64,000 nt of DNA from positions 261,408-325,407 of the forward strand of contig CAYGFH010000001.1 of assembly GCA_964349125.1 (NCBI GenBank), in the 5' to 3' direction. Below, piece after piece: positions 2,479 to 35,258 of this stretch (position 1 is its first letter; every line of letters starts with the position of its first letter). The stretch is from an uncultured Gammaproteobacteria bacterium. GTDB lineage: Bacteria > Patescibacteriota > Microgenomatia > UBA10105 > UBA927. The notes beneath the pieces are model-generated. The model was not told where the DNA came from and ran no database searches. It was given only the letters and a program-made list of their open reading frames with translations. The position numbers and the translations under genes are program-made.

Positions 2479-3305
2479 ATAAAATATTGATTTCTGTTTT
2501 TTATTTCTCCGATAATCAATTGAATCATATCGTCATATGAATATTCAGGCAAGTGCAGCGAACGGAGTTTCGTAAGATCTTCTGTGAGTACAACACCGTG
2601 ATCGTCAGCATCAAGTACACCCACAGTAATACCAAATGCACCAAGGATATCGCGGGCAACATCAAATCGTGTTTTGAGATCGGCAGTCCCAACAGGTATC
2701 GTCTCACCCCAAATTCCTGATTCCAAAGAGTGGTGTATCACAGCGGAGATATGTCCGATGTATGTTGGCTGAAATTTCCATGTAGTATCATACACAACAT
2801 CTGATTTTGCCTCCAGATGTCGAAGCATTTTATTAAATGACCGATCACTTGTTGAATTTGGACTGACTCCCAAAATGAGAGAAGGCCTAATAATGAGATA
2901 TCGTACCCCTGATTTTTTTAGGAGTGATTCAGCTTCATGTTTGGTTCTGCCATACACGGTTGACATATCCACGGCAGAGTATGAAGAAATATATATAACG
3001 GAAGCTGAAGTTGTTCTGGCCGCATCTATTATATAGTTCATAGATGTTTGATTCACACGAATTGCCTCGTCAGGGTGTGCCTCACACCATGCCGGACTAG
3101 CGTTATTTGCGGCATGAATAATGACATCCGGAAAAATATCGGAAATAACCGTTGAGACAGCGGAGACATCAGTTACATCCAGATGAACATATTCATCGGA
3201 TAGATTGTGGGAAGAAAATGTACCCACAACGTCATGATGTTGCTTCAGATCCCTATATAGTCTGGCACCTAAATAACTGCTTGCTCCAATCAGTAAGAGT
3301 TTCAT
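2475..3305 (-). CDS. NAD-dependent epimerase/dehydratase family protein (RmlD-like sugar-nucleotide reductase)
   Basis: N-terminal MKLLLIGASSYLGARLY glycine-rich Rossmann motif. 276 aa. Overlaps the upstream gene by 4 bp, suggesting an operon. Confidence 0.6.
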   Translation of the reverse strand: MKLLLIGASSYLGARLYRDLKQHHDVVGTFSSHNLSDEYVHLDVTDVSAVSTVISDIFPDVIIHAANNASPAWCEAHPDEAIRVNQTSMNYIIDAARTTSASVIYISSYSAVDMSTVYGRTKHEAESLLKKSGVRYLIIRPSLILGVSPNSTSDRSFNKMLRHLEAKSDVVYDTTWKFQPTYIGHISAVIHHSLESGIWGETIPVGTADLKTRFDVARDILGAFGITVGVLDADDHGVVLTEDLTKLRSLHLPEYSYDDMIQLIIGEIKNRNQYFI

Positions 3306-31985: not shown

Positions 31986-32384
31986 TTATGTGGTAATCTC
32001 CCAGATATGGTTATCCGGATCTTTGAAGTATGCGACAGATTGTCCCCAAGACATGTTGGATGGTCCTGAAAATATCTGTATCCCCTTCTCTCTTAACTCT
32101 TCACAGCTTTTTGCTATGTCCTCCACCTGATACGCATATACTGCACCGCCTCCAGAAGTCATATGTGAAGCGGGAAACATGGAAGTTGCCTGATCTTTTT
32201 GAAAAATAGCAAGAAGTGTATCCCCCAGTTTAAAATCCGCGTATTTCCCATCTTGTGAGTTCAGTATAAGTCCTAAGGTATCGCGGTAAAATCGCAGCGA
32301 AACTTCAAAATCGTGTACAAGCAAACAGACAGCATAGAGTGATTTCATACTATGAGTATACTCCCGGCTCTCTCTACTACTCAA
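31986..32384 (-). CDS. VOC-family (glyoxalase/bleomycin resistance) protein
   Basis: 132 aa with the pattern H..........D and the C-terminal HIWEI characteristic of the VOC fold. Confidence 0.65.
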   Translation of the reverse strand: MSSRESREYTHSMKSLYAVCLLVHDFEVSLRFYRDTLGLILNSQDGKYADFKLGDTLLAIFQKDQATSMFPASHMTSGGGAVYAYQVEDIAKSCEELREKGIQIFSGPSNMSWGQSVAYFKDPDNHIWEITT

Positions 32385-32440
32385 TTCCCAATCACGGCTG
32401 TTTTGCGGTATAATAAACTCCTACATATGATCTTGCGGGA

Positions 32441-32766
32441 TCTTTTTTCATACTGAGCAAAGCTGCGAGATCGTATAATGGTAGTACGCATCCCTCTGGA
32501 GGATGTTATCTAGGTTCGAGTCCTAGTCTCGCAGCTTTGCTCAGTAGAAATGGTAGTACGTCCCGATGAACATCGGGATTATCTATGTTCGGGAATGAGG
32601 AGTATTATCGAAGTGGCGATTCCGATAATATGCGGATCATTCATGGGTCTCGCCAATAGCGGACGAACATCGTCCTAGTCCCGCAGCTTTGCTAATATAA
32701 AGCACTACTCAGTAGTACGTCCCGCTAAGAGGAATTATCTAGATTCGAGTCATAGTTACGGAGCAA
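32441..32766 (+). repeat. composite tRNA-Gln-derived repeat, copy A
   Basis: Contains a 5' tRNA stub TGCGGGATC (32441-32449), a full tRNA, two tRNA-3'-half-derived hairpin modules, an inverted repeat (ATTATCGAA...TTCCGATAAT) and a second copy of the tRNA 3' end (TCCTAGTCCCGCAGC). About 85% identical to copy B at 34425-34790. Confidence 0.8.
32464..32534 (+). tRNA. tRNA-Gln (anticodon CUG)
   Basis: Hand-folded cloverleaf: acceptor TGCGAGA/TCTCGCA (7 bp, U1:A72), U8, D-stem GTAT/GTAC, D-loop AATGGTA (GG), anticodon stem CATCC/GGATG, loop CU-CUG-GA, variable TTAT, T-stem CTAGG/CCTAG, T-loop TTCGAGT, discriminator G73. No encoded CCA. Confidence 0.8.
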
Positions 32767-32833
32767 GTTGGTTTTAGGATCAATTTTTATCGCCCCTGAA
32801 TGGAAAGTTCGAACTTTCTGGTATAATTACTTC

Positions 32834-33229
32834 ATGAATGATGACCTAAAAAAGATAATTGAGAGTTCCTCTTTTGTTGTTCACGAGGGTAAGTTTGTTT
32901 ACACCAAAGTAAAAACTGCTCCAGAGATTAACAAGCATTTTCTGGTAAGCAAAGATGCTGATGAAATTACCGTTGTTACTAAAGAAGAGAATCTCACGGA
33001 AATAGACGTTATTGAGAGAAATAAAGATAACTATTCGTTGATTGAATTAAAAGTATCCGTTCCATTTTATTCTGTTGGTTTTCTTGCCACAGTAAGCTCT
33101 GAAATAGCAAAACTGGGAATGAATATACTTATCATTTCTACTTACTCAAAAGATTACATTATGGTTCGAATTGAACATACGGAAAAAGCAATTCAAACAT
33201 TAACGAGTCTGGGATTTTCTAAGAAATAA
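32834..33229 (+). CDS. small ACT-like domain protein (cargo gene 1 of the tRNA-Gln-flanked cassette)
   Basis: The ORF track starts at TTG 32768 inside the repeat; the likely start is ATG 32834 (MNDDLKKII). The C-terminal region (NILIISTYSKDYIMVRIEHTEKAIQTL) resembles ACT_7-type domains. AT-rich codon usage. Confidence 0.45.
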   Translation: MNDDLKKIIESSSFVVHEGKFVYTKVKTAPEINKHFLVSKDADEITVVTKEENLTEIDVIERNKDNYSLIELKVSVPFYSVGFLATVSSEIAKLGMNILIISTYSKDYIMVRIEHTEKAIQTLTSLGFSKK

Positions 33230-33276
33230 GTTCTGATACTTTCTGTCAAAAGAAGTCAAATGTTTTGACCTAAAAA

Positions 33277-33723
33277 ATGGCTATCATGTGGCAAACGATA
33301 GAACCTTTACACAATCAACGTATGCTATCAAAACGATTTCAATTAATTTTAGTTTTATCTTTACTTCTCAACTACCTTCATGGTTTTGAATGTATCCTGA
33401 CAAAGTTTTACGACCTTCAGCCAAATTTTTATTTCTTTACTGAATACTTACATAGTATTCATGAGAGCGTTTATTTTGTTTTCCATGGAACCTTTTGGGT
33501 ATTCATCCTCTTGGCATTCTTTTTACTCAAAGGTGGGAAGTGGATTTTTATTCCACTTGCATTGTATGGATCTGTTTTCTTTACTGAGTTTCACCACTTT
33601 GTTAGAGGAGTATTGATGATGAGCTACTACCCCGGAATGATTACTTCATTGTTTTTCCCAATACTTGGAGTTTTTTACTGGAAAGAAGTCTTACAGCTTT
33701 GGAAAAAGGTTTCAAAGAGCTAG
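33277..33723 (+). CDS. small integral membrane protein (HXXEE-like motifs)
   Basis: 148 aa with four transmembrane helices and motifs LHGFEC and EFHHF. AT-rich. Confidence 0.4.
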   Translation: MAIMWQTIEPLHNQRMLSKRFQLILVLSLLLNYLHGFECILTKFYDLQPNFYFFTEYLHSIHESVYFVFHGTFWVFILLAFFLLKGGKWIFIPLALYGSVFFTEFHHFVRGVLMMSYYPGMITSLFFPILGVFYWKEVLQLWKKVSKS

Positions 33724-33751
33724 ATAATAGGTTCATCAGGTGGAGTAAAAC

Positions 33752-34378
33752 ATGAAATACTATCTTTCATCATATAAACTAGGCAACAGTACTAAAAAAC
33801 TTGAAGCGTGGGTAGCAAACACCTCTCGCAAATTTGCATATATTCCAAATGCTCGCGATTTCACCAATGCTGACCCAGAAAAGAAAAGGCACGACACAGA
33901 AGAAGACATGAATCAACTCCATAAATTAGGAATAGAGGTGGAGTTATTAAATTTAAAAGATTATTTTGATAGACAAGTAGAATTAAAACGAAAATTGGAT
34001 TCTCTAAACGGAGTTTATATAAGTGGCGGAAATTCATTTGTTCTTCGGCAGGCAATGAAACTAAGTGGACTAGATAAATTAATTTTGGAAATGAAGAGTA
34101 GAGACGATTTTATTTACATCGGCTATAGTGCTGCAGTCTGTGTTTTATGCTCTAACCTGAAATACTATGCCATCACCGACGATGCAAATGATTTTCCATA
34201 TCCACAACTTAAAAAACAGGTTTGGAATGGCTTGGGAGTTTTGGAATATATTTTTGAGCCGCATTATCATTCTGACCACCCCGAATCTGCTAGTACAGAT
34301 AAAGAGATACAGAAACTAATCGAGGACAAAGTATTGTTTAAGGCATTCAAGGATGGAGAGGTTTTAATAATTGAATAG
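33752..34378 (+). CDS. peptidase S51 (dipeptidase E / cyanophycinase-like) family protein
   Basis: VYISGGNSFVLRQAM and IGYSAAVCV (Ser nucleophile context) are typical of the PepE/S51 class-I glutamine-amidotransferase-like fold. Preceded by a GGTGGAG RBS. Confidence 0.7.
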   Translation: MKYYLSSYKLGNSTKKLEAWVANTSRKFAYIPNARDFTNADPEKKRHDTEEDMNQLHKLGIEVELLNLKDYFDRQVELKRKLDSLNGVYISGGNSFVLRQAMKLSGLDKLILEMKSRDDFIYIGYSAAVCVLCSNLKYYAITDDANDFPYPQLKKQVWNGLGVLEYIFEPHYHSDHPESASTDKEIQKLIEDKVLFKAFKDGEVLIIE

Positions 34379-34424
34379 ATATTTATAGGATCGAACTGCT
34401 CCAGGCCTGTGCGATCAACACTGT

Positions 34425-34790
34425 TCAGTAATACGTCCCGCTTAGCGGGATTATCTGGGTTCGTTTAAAATTGAATACATATTGCAAAGCTGCGGGATTC
34501 GTATTTTTGTTTAGTGAGCAGCGCTGCGGGATCGTATAATGGTAGTACGCATCCCTCTGGAGGATGTTATCTAGGTTCGAGTCCTAGTCCCGCAGCACTG
34601 CTCAGTAGTACGCCCCGACGGATGCGTCGGGATTATCTAGGTTCGGGAATGAGGAGCATTATCGAAACTGCGATTTCGATAATATGCAGATCATTCATGA
34701 AAGCGCGAAGCGCTGAACATCGTCCTAGTCCCGCAGCACTACTCAGTAGTACGCCCTGATCTAGATTACACTTAAGAGATGCCACTTGAT
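34425..34790 (+). repeat. composite tRNA-Gln-derived repeat, copy B
   Basis: Has the same module order as copy A plus an extra upstream hairpin module (34425-34465). Includes a 5' tRNA stub (CAAAGCTGCGGGATTCGTAT, 34478-34497), a full tRNA, a perfect 10-bp inverted repeat (ATTATCGAAA-6 nt-TTTCGATAAT, 34658-34683) and a second tRNA 3'-end copy (TCCTAGTCCCGCAGC, 34724-34738). Confidence 0.8.
34525..34595 (+). tRNA. tRNA-Gln (anticodon CUG), second copy
   Basis: Identical to the 32464 copy except for a compensatory change in the acceptor stem (G5:C68 here, A5:U68 in copy A). The cloverleaf folds by hand. Confidence 0.8.
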
Positions 34791-35258
34791 TTGGTTTTTC
34801 TTTTTTCATTAAATATCTTTGTACATTATCGCACTGATATTCCTCAATCCATTCAATACAATATTTACCATATGACAACATCAGAAAAAGTAAAAAACAT
34901 GCTTTTTTGGGGATTTATACTCTGGCTGGTCGGGTATATTGCAGGAATCGTATTATTTTTTATTGTACCCAAGGAGTATATCGGTTGGATTATTACCCCA
35001 CTGGCTACCATATTTATTATCTGGGTATTGATGCGCAAGGTTAAGAGGCCGGAGTTGATGTGCTACTTTGGAACCGGACTCATTTGGACTGTCATGGCTG
35101 TCGTATTGGATTACCTGTTTAATGTCGTTCTGTTTAAAATTGGAAATTCGTATTACCAGCCGGATGTTTTCTTATATTATATTCTCACGTTCACCCTCCC
35201 GATTGCCGTAGGATACTGGAAATATACACATAAATCCCCAAAGGCAAAACTGTTTTAG
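34779..35258 (+). CDS. hypothetical integral membrane protein
   Basis: 159 aa with four transmembrane helices. Confidence 0.45.
   Translation: MPLDLVFLFSLNIFVHYRTDIPQSIQYNIYHMTTSEKVKNMLFWGFILWLVGYIAGIVLFFIVPKEYIGWIITPLATIFIIWVLMRKVKRPELMCYFGTGLIWTVMAVVLDYLFNVVLFKIGNSYYQPDVFLYYILTFTLPIAVGYWKYTHKSPKAKLF

Follow-up and report, generated by a model that had tools for sequence, protein, structure and literature searches.

The locus raises the question of whether two similar composite repeats, each containing a tRNA-Gln(CUG) gene and pieces of tRNA sequence and together bracketing an AT-rich cassette of three genes, are the scar of an integrative element that targeted a tRNA gene and then decayed, as the original prediction proposed, or whether they have another origin. 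The locus was analyzed within a window of 64 kb, by which we mean the whole stretch of DNA under study, and its arrangement is identical across three independent assemblies. The host is a small-genome bacterium of the Patescibacteria/CPR; similar composites occur in eight other contigs (labelled L006, L007, L012-L015 and L017-19), which are Gottesmanbacteria-like.

Two composite repeats and the cassette between them

The composites are about 330-370 bp long and 86% identical over 243 shared positions, close to the ~85% first estimated, with blocks of 105 and 73 nt at 90%. Every module that had been predicted in them (5' stub, hairpin module, inverted repeat, second tRNA 3' end and further 3'-derived module) is present in its predicted position (Table 1). 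The motifs of these modules are commoner than expected by chance, their observed counts being reached in none of 100 shuffles, and in the window they are confined to both composites, apart from scattered matches with one or two mismatches. As anticipated, each composite includes a complete tRNA gene: ARAGORN detected exactly two tRNAs in the window, both tRNA-Gln with the anticodon CTG (32464-32535 and 34525-34596). Both have an anticodon loop of 7 nt and score above the gathering score (29) of the Rfam model RF00005, with 60.5 bits (32464-32534) and 60.0 bits (34525-34595).

The interval between the composites is indeed AT-rich; the stretch 32768-34378 has 34.2% GC, the lowest of any 1.6 kb in the window (mean 42.2%, sd 2.1). 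The predicted nature of its three products, an ACT-like, a small membrane and an S51 protein, agrees with the Pfam matches, that for the membrane protein being weak. The gaps between these genes (47 and 28 nt) carry no repeat, and an integron cassette array was rejected, given that no integrase is recorded among the genes called within ~10 kb and that these gaps lack an attC-like repeat. The closest homologs of the three genes sit in unrelated contexts, and the genes do not form a unit elsewhere; the closest S51 homolog likewise adjoins a tRNA-Gln(CUG).

Table 1. Features of the locus, in window coordinates
Feature	Positions	Strand	Basis or remark
Left flank, glyoxalase/VOC protein	31986-32348	-	Also adjoins the nest in L006 and L015
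Promoter-like site, TTCCCA-18-TATAAT	32385-32414	+	TTTGCGGTATAAT motif also in L006, L007, L012-L015, L017
Copy A, 5' stub: 5' acceptor strand of O (TGCGGGATC)	32434-32442	+	Pairs with 32679-32685 in predicted fold
Copy A, leader arm of helix prolonging the tRNA acceptor stem	32451-32463	+	Arms of 20 nt, 100% complementary; covariation
Copy A, complete tRNA-Gln(CUG), CCA not encoded	32464-32534	+	ARAGORN, Rfam
Copy A, trailer arm of extended helix (first base, discriminator G)	32534-32546	+	Complementarity, covariation
Copy A, remainder of O (M1A), beginning with D-arm	32543-32686	+	Sequence, predicted fold, tiling
M1A, hairpin module	32552-32591
M1A, GC hairpin replacing the anticodon arm	32561-32578		Followed by variable region and T-stem 5' strand, to 32591
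M1A, T-loop insert	32592-32672		~81 nt, structured; contains the inverted repeat
M1A, inverted repeat ATTATCGAA../..TTCGATAAT	32604-32629
M1A, T-stem 3' strand, acceptor 3' strand and G73; second tRNA 3' end (TCCTAGTCCCGCAG)	32673-32686
Copy A, further O-type 3' portion (M2A): degenerate hairpin and acceptor strand	32711-32763	+	Repeat comparison
Cargo gene 1, ACT-domain protein, 131 aa	32834-33229	+	Pfam ACT_7, 8e-11
Cargo gene 2, small membrane protein, 148 aa	33277-33723	+	Weak HXXEE match, 0.004
Cargo gene 3, peptidase S51/dipeptidase E-like protein, 208 aa	33752-34378	+	Pfam Peptidase_S51, 3e-20
Copy B, O core (M0): D-stem 3' strand, hairpin (34436-34450), T-stem 5' strand, TTCG	34427-34463	+
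Copy B, leader-arm remnant (GCAAAGC) and O 5' stub TGCGGGATTCGTAT	34484-34504 (stub 34491-34504)	+	Sequence, direct repeat
Copy B, leader arm of extended helix	34512-34524	+	Arms 90% complementary; covariation
Copy B, complete tRNA-Gln(CUG)	34525-34595	+	ARAGORN, Rfam
Copy B, trailer arm of extended helix	34595-34607	+	Complementarity
Copy B, remainder of O (M1B)	34604-34736	+
M1B, hairpin module (hairpin 34613-34632)	34604-34645
M1B, T-loop insert	34646-34722
M1B, inverted repeat in T-loop insert	34658-34683
M1B, 3' strands; second tRNA 3' end	34723-34736
Copy B, truncated further O-type module (M2B)	34744-34769	+	Repeat comparison
Right flank, resident membrane protein, 128 aa	34872-35258	+	Directly follows the single nest in L015

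A tRNA-Gln unit inside a split pseudo-tRNA

Each composite is a nest, in which a hairpin-closed tRNA-Gln(CUG) unit lies inside a loop of a pseudo-tRNA derived from tRNA-Gln, here named O. The unit is closed by its leader and trailer, which pair with each other in a covarying helix of 13-20 bp and prolong the acceptor stem of the tRNA by 9-14 bp or more. This helix was found in 9 of 10 loci with differing sequences, and both sides had changed in 11 of 14 pairs; 82% of the leader/trailer cells are paired, against 34-49% with a slid partner, and none of 500 shuffles reached the observed values. The mismatches in the helix show no G-U bias (about five G-U against four A-C), so that selection at the RNA level is not separated by them from selection at the DNA level.

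Acceptor, D and T elements are kept in the pseudo-tRNA, whereas a GC stem of 5-6 bp with a loop of 3-5 nt takes the place of the anticodon arm; the consensus of O is TGCGGGA TC GTAT AAYGGTA GTAC G TCCCG-CTNNG-CGGGA TTAT CTWGG TTCGAAT CCWAG TCCCGCA G. In nine units, drawn from seven loci, the pieces of O (5' stub, middle and 3' end) together cover a tRNA body once and once only. The tRNA is inserted in the D-loop of O in the window copies and in the T-loop in some relatives, and in places one O is nested within another, up to three levels in L006 and L014. The nested helices also appear in the predicted folds (z-scores -4.9 and -4.0). The modules M0, M1 and M2 gave no tRNA match to RF00005 even at E <= 5; they are unlike a tRNA in their short anticodon loop (3-5 nt) and in a body split by inserts. 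In copy B, M0 has neither a 5' partner nor an upstream promoter, and at the point where it meets the next unit it matches the junction of the T-loop insertion in L006.

In the relatives, the TTTGCGGTATAAT motif of the promoter-like site precedes the outermost 5' acceptor strand by 5-21 nt, and the conservation of a putative promoter in this position suggests that the nest is read as one transcription unit.

The core of O is conserved at ~95% identity even though the genes of the genomes compared share only 65-71%, a sign that O is under constraint and at odds with the proposal of a decayed element. Coding DNA is 65-71% identical between L007, L012 and L013, yet their 37-nt core varies in loop bases only; in L012 and L013 the inner tRNAs have diverged at many positions. 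In two pattern scans for which a tRNA was not a requirement, all five true matches had O beside tRNA-Gln(CUG). The outer acceptor helix shows a single compensatory change (A5/T68 in L015), which could alternatively come from gene conversion off the inner tRNA.

Relatives and the origin of the duplication

In all the nest-bearing relatives (L006, L007, L012, L013, L014, L015 and L017-19) the nest is single and free of cargo, so the idea that the repeat modules are tied to the cargo was rejected. The nest lies between obg/greA and a glyoxalase gene in L017-19, beside obg or greA in L013 and L007, and beside the glyoxalase gene in the window, L006 and L015. Related bacteria carry the nest once and without cargo, which marks it as an RNA-gene architecture passed on by descent rather than a scar left by an integrating element.

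The original prediction looked to relatives for an empty locus, such as is expected of an island, and the sister contig L015 provides one: a single nest lies directly between a glyoxalase gene (85% identical to that of the window) and the gene for the 128-aa membrane protein, and its right flank is homologous to the window DNA from M2B (34744) to the membrane-protein gene. As the flanks are shared and L015 has a single nest between them, the cassette together with one of the nest copies amounts to an indel of 2.06 kb between direct repeats, which most likely arose by homologous recombination between nest copies and not by an integrase. Copy A is 91% identical to the nest of L015, and copy B is 85-86% identical to both, which places the divergence of copy B before the split of the two genomes. 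Foreign DNA with a diverged nest was most likely gained here; the alternative is a loss from L015 by repeat-mediated deletion. The stretch from the glyoxalase gene to UDG differs in gene content in 4 of 4 relatives examined. The ~2 kb that follow copy B (membrane protein, DUF1801, DUF2200 and DinB), which had been tentatively added to the accessory tract, are syntenic and 77-96% identical in L016, and thus are resident genes and not part of the insert.

From the proposal of a tRNA-targeting element there remain, then, direct repeats that bracket an AT-rich three-gene insert at a tRNA locus, whereas its integrase/att origin was not sustained. A decayed element at tRNA-Gln, with the tRNA 3' ends as attL and attR and the integrase since lost, would account for these repeats around the cargo, for the empty site, for the variable neighbourhood and for the tRNA-Gln(CUG) beside the closest S51 homolog. 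Nonetheless, we consider it very improbable, because att recombination makes neither 5' stubs nor nesting, and the pieces tile one tRNA-like body around a complete tRNA. An att repeat in the form of a short, 3'-only tRNA duplicate was likewise rejected; the repeats are whole nests, each with a complete tRNA, a 5' stub and fragments, and at 330-370 bp and only 86% identity they are not a short identical core. The same modules occur in single copy and cargo-free in the eight contigs, copy B predates the split from L015, and elsewhere the three cargo genes do not occur as a unit. Moreover, the precomputed Pfam matches include no integrase or recombinase domain within ~10 kb on each side of the S51 gene (about 23.8-44.4 kb), in line with the earlier remark that no integrase remains, and none was found among the called genes of L015 or L016; the viral contigs searched gave no matches to the locus.

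Competing explanations and known systems

Our best explanation, which as a whole has in our judgement about an even chance of being correct, is that the duplicated tRNA-Gln nest is a gene architecture specific to one Gottesmanbacteria-like clade of Patescibacteria, that it yields one precursor and that it was duplicated here by recombination. We favour the reading that O is a co-transcribed, tRNA-like processing scaffold. The entire nest would be transcribed as one precursor; the long helix would make the tRNA a poor direct substrate of RNase P, since one report (PMC9433436) describes inhibition of the bacterial enzyme by pairing that extends the acceptor stem, so a double-strand-specific nuclease probably opens the helix before RNase P acts. 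RNase P, RNase Z or the CCA-adding enzyme probably uses the conserved, elbow-forming core of O as a tRNA-like handle or punctuation mark; another possibility is the release of O as a split, anticodon-less tRNA mimic. Against this explanation, L016 has a plain tRNA-Gln(CUG) with the helix and without O, and O is thus dispensable at a tRNA locus, while in L017-19 only the 5' stub of O remains. Between the window and its close relatives L015, L006 and L016 the arrangement shifts fast, and M2A, M2B and the L012 acceptor strands are degenerate, neither of which is expected of a precisely required RNA; in addition, a tRNA-like elbow would be expected to suffer from insertions in the D- and T-loops.

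Several of these observations suit other readings. The tRNA unit or O could be a small non-autonomous mobile element that inserts itself into tRNA-Gln-like loops, in which case the nests would be accumulated self-insertions, and O would be highly alike in different lineages through spread or gene conversion and not through function. Such selfish nesting, which we regard as unlikely, fits the matryoshka-like nests of up to three levels, the two insertion sites (D-loop and T-loop), the inverted repeats that edge the inserted units, the patchy occurrence (O is absent from L016 and a remnant in L017) and the fast rearrangement. However, the junctions lack target-site duplications, the called genes near the nests (L001, L015-L019) include no transposase, integrase or reverse transcriptase, and no copy away from tRNA-Gln(CUG) was found in any locus or scan; the locus is also syntenic across lineages, which argues for vertical inheritance, and the inverted-repeat sequences differ by lineage and covary, unlike a conserved transposase site. 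A MITE or similar small transposon was rejected on the same grounds: covarying arms, no target-site duplication and copies all at tRNA-Gln(CUG). It is also improbable, to a somewhat greater degree, that slippage, unequal crossing-over and gene conversion among tRNA fragments, helped by the palindromic leader and trailer, left non-functional debris, with the window duplication as one more such event. A 36-nt tandem duplication in L014 (trailer arm, spacer and 3' end), the resemblance of copy B to a recombinant of an L006-type arrangement, the degenerate M2A and M2B, a decayed 3' end upstream of M0 and the lack of O in L016 and L017 are what such a process would leave; yet in nine units the 5' and 3' pieces complete each other without overlap or gap, and the O-specific hairpin is kept, with only its loop bases varying, where coding DNA is 65-71% identical. 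This hairpin is absent from any tRNA, so gene conversion from a tRNA cannot maintain it.

Among known systems, tRNA-targeted islands and prophages resemble the locus in having cargo beside a tRNA gene, direct repeats with tRNA 3' sequence, absence from a relative and an atypical base composition; here, in contrast, no integrase was found in the ~10 kb on each side, and the repeats are nests of 330-370 bp with 86% identity that include 5' fragments and are cargo-free in relatives. The mascRNA of the MALAT1 3' end and the t-elements of plant mitochondria are cloverleaf-like mimics with intact acceptor, D and T parts and a reduced, non-decoding anticodon arm; they are co-transcribed with another RNA, and the mimic is where RNase P and RNase Z cleave. 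The O consensus shares their acceptor, D and T elements and reduced anticodon arm. These mimics are contiguous and eukaryotic or organellar, whereas O is always split, bacterial and tied to one tRNA species, and its processing is inferred.

The disrupted tRNA genes of archaea (multi-intron, split and permuted; PMC4033280) are similar in their non-canonical interruptions, which include the D- and T-loops, in the complementary flanks that close the interruption and in a position that varies between related genomes. In contrast, the locus described here lies in a bacterial genome, where a complete functional tRNA interrupts a pseudo-tRNA that lacks an anticodon; the junctions are flanked by long irregular helices, and inspection by eye did not reveal the canonical 3-4-3 bulge-helix-bulge. 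The "tRNA-Other" of Bacillus cereus (PMC3399842) is likewise a tRNA-like gene that does not decode and that borders a variable genomic region, but it is contiguous and stand-alone with a reported regulatory phenotype, while O is nested with a real tRNA. No match to the Y RNA family was obtained at E <= 5 in 32300-34900, and an identity with the bacterial Y RNA YrlA was rejected. YrlA (PMC4201824) also combines a tRNA-like module with a long helix, in which the two RNA ends pair; its long stem replaces the anticodon stem and binds Ro/Rsr, whereas in the nests the helix prolongs the acceptor stem of a complete tRNA.

Anatomy of the tRNA-Gln nests

ARAGORN calls only two tRNAs in the window, both tRNA-Gln(CUG) genes that score 60 bits against Rfam and lie where the original prediction had placed them, and each is surrounded by a composite of 330-370 bp in which all six predicted modules were found. 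Where they can be aligned (243 positions), the two composites, copy A and copy B, are 86% identical, and identity rises to 90% in one block of 105 nt and another of 73 nt. The same arrangement is found in three independent assemblies. The signature motifs are strongly enriched at both composites; elsewhere in the window they give just scattered matches with 1-2 mismatches.

The leader and the trailer of each tRNA are complementary to each other and carry the acceptor stem on through the discriminator base; each arm is 20 nt long, and complementarity is 100% for copy A and 90% for copy B. The upstream stub duplicates tRNA positions 1-9 or 1-13. The downstream piece begins at the D-arm, has a GC hairpin instead of the anticodon arm, and continues with the variable region, the T-stem 5' strand and TTCG; after a structured insert of ~80 nt it is followed by the T-stem 3' strand, the acceptor 3' strand and G73. 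The stub, the middle piece and the 3' end together make up one tRNA-like body, which we call O, and in the window copies the helix-closed tRNA occupies the D-loop of O and the second insert its T-loop. The predicted minimum-free-energy folds of the two copies recover this nesting (z = -4.9 and -4.0), and we refer to such a composite as a nest.

The T-loop insert is kept in copies A and B and in the nest of the related contig L015, and in its predicted fold a GAATGA/TCATTC helix surrounds a ATTATCGAAA/TTTCGATAAT hairpin; next comes a second hairpin, which varies in sequence from copy to copy but keeps its pairing. A small ORF in this insert, M(R/Q)IIH..., is probably non-coding, given that its first 5 codons alone are conserved and that it overlaps the helix arms. 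Copy A and the relatives L006, L007 and L012-L015 share a promoter motif (TTTGCGGTATAAT) that precedes the outermost 5' strand by 5-21 nt; it is also found upstream of the stub in L017 and is absent from copy B.

Several other identities were considered for the composite. The O hairpin could plausibly be an intrinsic terminator where O is placed 3' of the tRNA, but it precedes the tRNA in L007, L006 and L014. The triplets of the hairpin loop (TTA, TCA, TAG, TGA, TAA) were discarded as stop codons or suppressor anticodons, since a 5-nt loop cannot present an anticodon, and are taken as a coincidence. In the composite region Rfam gave no match to Y RNA, tmRNA, group I introns or other families, the two tRNAs alone passing the gathering threshold, and the nest fails the tests that define a Y RNA. 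Both copies also weakly resemble the Streptococcus sRNA SpF41, at 27-30 bits where the gathering score is 52, because of their tRNA part; the consensus of this family folds like a tRNA in which a very short arm takes the place of the anticodon arm.

Positions of the features in the window and in the comparison contigs
Feature	Sequence	Position
Nest, copy A	window	~32434-32763
Nest, copy B	window	~34427-34769
tRNA-Gln(CUG), copy A	window	32464-32535
tRNA-Gln(CUG), copy B	window	34525-34596
SpF41 resemblance, copy A	window	32460-32558
SpF41 resemblance, copy B	window	34521-34639
T-loop insert, copy A	window	32592-32672
T-loop insert, copy B	window	34646-34722
Promoter-like sequence of the ACT gene	window	32813-32833
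Plain tRNA-Glu(CUC)	L020-L022	7964-8038
Tandem duplication	L014	971-1050
Junction of outer pseudo-tRNA and obg	L013	about 3098-3112, minus strand
S51 peptidase gene next to tRNA-Gln(CUG)	L027	1932-2636
UDG remnant and AT-rich end	L006	4512-5367
Glyoxalase-to-UDG tract	L016	968-9923
CBASS-like pair	L035/L036	813-2242

Arrangement and conservation of the nests among relatives

A scan of 185,579 species genomes with the hairpin-module pattern returned two genuine matches, L006 and L007 (Candidatus Gottesmanbacteria), and JGI metagenomes yielded three more, L012-L014; chance matches made up 5 of the 7 and 1 of the 4 hits, respectively. Viral contigs gave zero matches, or chance matches without tRNA context, in three pattern scans. 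Every true match has a tRNA-Gln(CUG) at no more than about 100 nt. The loci L015, L016 and L017-19 were reached through homologs of the glyoxalase gene that flanks the nest, and both sets of relatives indicate that the organism is a Gottesmanbacteria-like member of Patescibacteria. The record of L006 is labelled Gammaproteobacteria yet is syntenic with the Patescibacteria window, and the label looks wrong.

The layout differs from locus to locus. The tRNA lies inside the D-loop of O in L013 and L012 and inside its T-loop in L007; in L006 and L014 it is inside the T-loop of one pseudo-tRNA, O1, which has a helix of its own and lies in turn inside the D-loop of another, O2. L015 is laid out as copy A, L017-19 keep only the 5' stub and the helix-clamped tRNA, and L016 only the latter. 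In each of nine O units, drawn from seven loci, the O consensus is tiled once by the pieces, although the local alignments over-extend a few bases at some junctions and leave small apparent overlaps; a single tiling argues for insertion into O and not for independent partial duplications. In L014 a 36-nt tandem duplication (trailer arm, spacer, T-stem 3' strand, acceptor 3' strand) corresponds to slippage between the repeated 3' ends within the nest.

In L017-19 obg, the tRNA and the glyoxalase gene all lie within 3 kb; the nest adjoins obg or greA in L013 and L007, and the glyoxalase gene in the window, L006 and L015. No nest is found upstream of the window obg. These neighbourhoods are compatible with one ancestral nest position between obg/greA and the glyoxalase gene. 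The Gottesmanbacteria contigs L020-L022 carry a plain tRNA-Glu(CUC) between greA and the glyoxalase gene, where relatives have tRNA-Gln(CUG). In L013 a single C separates the discriminator G of the outer pseudo-tRNA from the ATG of obg; a cut at the pseudo-tRNA 3' end would yield an almost leaderless obg mRNA. As mobile structures, a MITE or IS was dismissed (no target-site duplication, no dispersed copies), and so was an integron (no attC-like repeats between the cassette genes).

The leader/trailer helix covaries. In a gap-free alignment of ten loci both sides have changed in 11 of 14 pairs, and 82% of the cells are paired, against 34-49% in slid registers; none of 500 shuffles matched the observed values. 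Positions -2/-1 are almost always GC, pairing with G73 and C74. A more distant tRNA-Gln(CUG), in L027, has no leader/trailer helix and encodes CCA instead. The 37-nt core of O is also conserved: only two or three loop bases differ among L007, L012 and L013. These contigs share 65-71% identity in protein-coding DNA, and many positions distinguish the inner tRNA of L012 from that of L013. Gene conversion from the tRNA cannot maintain the O-specific hairpin. For the outer acceptor helix, one compensatory change (G5-C68 in the window, A5-T68 in L015) may be taken as weak support.

The cassette and the variable region

The interval between the nests had been described as AT-rich, and with 34.2% GC these 1.6 kb are indeed the window minimum at that length (mean of 1.6-kb stretches 42.2%, sd 2.1); the cargo is likewise the predicted one, an ACT_7 protein, a small membrane protein (weak HXXEE match) and an S51 peptidase. 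The suggested comparison with an empty site in relatives was answered by L015, in which a single nest stands directly between the glyoxalase gene (85% identical) and a gene for a 128-aa membrane protein (62%), and the sequence to its right is homologous to the right flank of copy B. Thus the window equals L015 plus one 2.06 kb repeat period, made of one nest copy and three genes, and the two differ by an indel between direct repeats. The L015 nest shares 91% identity with copy A, and copy B shares 85-86% with either of them, which gives the tree ((A, L015), B), so that copy B predates the split or came from outside. The three cassette genes are missing at the locus in L006, L015 and L016, and their closest homologs (S51 82%, ACT 86% identical) are in unrelated contexts. 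From these sequence comparisons we infer that foreign DNA was gained via homologous recombination anchored on the nest; a repeat-mediated deletion in L015 is a possible alternative.

An exception among the contexts is the best S51 homolog (82%), in L027 and also in L028, which starts 4 nt downstream of the ordinary CCA-encoding tRNA-Gln(CUG), a gene free of O modules as well; hence linkage of the S51 peptidase gene to tRNA-Gln(CUG) is seen in a second, independent genome. L035/L036 carry a CBASS-like pair (SMODS/CD-NTase and a Cap15-type effector) beside a restriction-modification S subunit, some 6 kb away from the closest ACT homolog. Directly upstream of the ACT gene the window has a separate promoter-like TGGTATAAT, which resembles the -10 region before the nests.

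That the following ~2 kb may belong to the same accessory tract, as had been suggested, is not borne out: the membrane protein, DUF1801, DUF2200 and DinB genes are syntenic and 77-96% identical in L016, and are therefore resident. L016 lacks the P-type ATPase. Directly after the nest of L006 the UDG gene survives as no more than its last 31 codons, 74% identical to the window UDG, and about 760 nt of AT-rich DNA with no long ORF then run to the contig end. The differences in gene content in L006 and L016 make the glyoxalase-to-UDG interval a variable region. The tract of L016 includes SLFN_AlbA_2/HATPase_c_4, HEAT-repeat, polysaccharide deacetylase and DUF998 proteins among its accessory genes, and is typical of a gene-turnover hotspot.

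Possible roles of the nest and comparison with known systems

The main interest of the locus is the nested architecture and not the presumed island. The original prediction read the duplicated tRNA 3' ends as the attL/attR scar of a decayed integrative element; the cassette and its low GC would suit this model, but no integrase is seen within about 10 kb, there is no short 3'-only att repeat and the modules occur without cargo, and we regard it as very unlikely. A selfish, self-nesting element would agree with the pseudo-tRNAs set inside one another; against it, no transposase, integrase or reverse transcriptase is found among the genes called around the nests of L001 (the window's own locus) and L015-L019, and we consider it unlikely. 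Several features count against a strict need for O: L016 and L017-19 lack it or retain a reduced form beside the tRNA, other copies are degenerate, and the layout varies even between close relatives. The missing and degenerate copies would fit neutral recombinational debris, a reading that the single tiling of the O units and the conserved O hairpin oppose and that we find decidedly improbable. A comparison of G-U with A-C mismatches in the helices (RNA- versus DNA-level selection) gave no clear bias.

That the nest is a functional tRNA precursor, with O as a tRNA-like element, seems to us an evenly balanced proposition. The whole nest would be transcribed as one precursor. Bacterial RNase P is inhibited when additional pairing lengthens the acceptor stem (PMC9433436), so a double-strand-specific RNase would probably open the leader/trailer helix first. 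O retains the elbow G18/G19 and TTCG, and probably serves tRNA-processing enzymes as a tRNA-like handle or as a punctuation mark; alternatively, it might be released as a two-piece, anticodon-less tRNA mimic. A further proposal, which we consider unlikely, is that the nest is an undescribed kind of bacterial RNA gene of Gottesmanbacteria-like CPR bacteria. It would encode a conserved tRNA-Gln mimic that has no anticodon and never occurs in one piece: a functional tRNA-Gln(CUG), closed by its helix, would always interrupt the D- or T-loop, with up to three levels of nesting in some cases. If so, it would entail a non-canonical excision pathway, possibly with rejoining or two-piece assembly analogous to archaeal tRNA splicing, and its products would be a tRNA and a tRNA-like RNA with its own putative function.

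The nest reveals a conserved tRNA mimic, and it indicates that tRNA-fragment arrays beside variable gene content are not always integrase scars; nests can be long homology anchors through which small accessory genes are gained and lost where obvious mobile-element machinery is missing from the genome. If the functional-precursor reading holds, the nest would offer a natural example of a tRNA fold lodged in the loops of a second one, and would point to an unusual tRNA maturation in CPR bacteria, given that the long leader/trailer helix should block direct access of RNase P.

The mascRNA-type tRNA-like processing mimics have a reduced anticodon arm, a trait that O shares with them. The helix-closed interruptions in the D- and T-loops resemble those of archaeal disrupted tRNA genes (PMC4033280). 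No description of nested tRNA/pseudo-tRNA genes in Patescibacteria was found in the searchable literature, and a paper on group I introns in Patescibacteria tRNAs (PMC13011429) mentions neither tRNA-Gln, nor the T-loop, nor nesting. We place the nest with the tRNA-like and disrupted tRNA genes; if it is a functional precursor, bacteria would have in it a counterpart of the archaeal disrupted tRNA genes.
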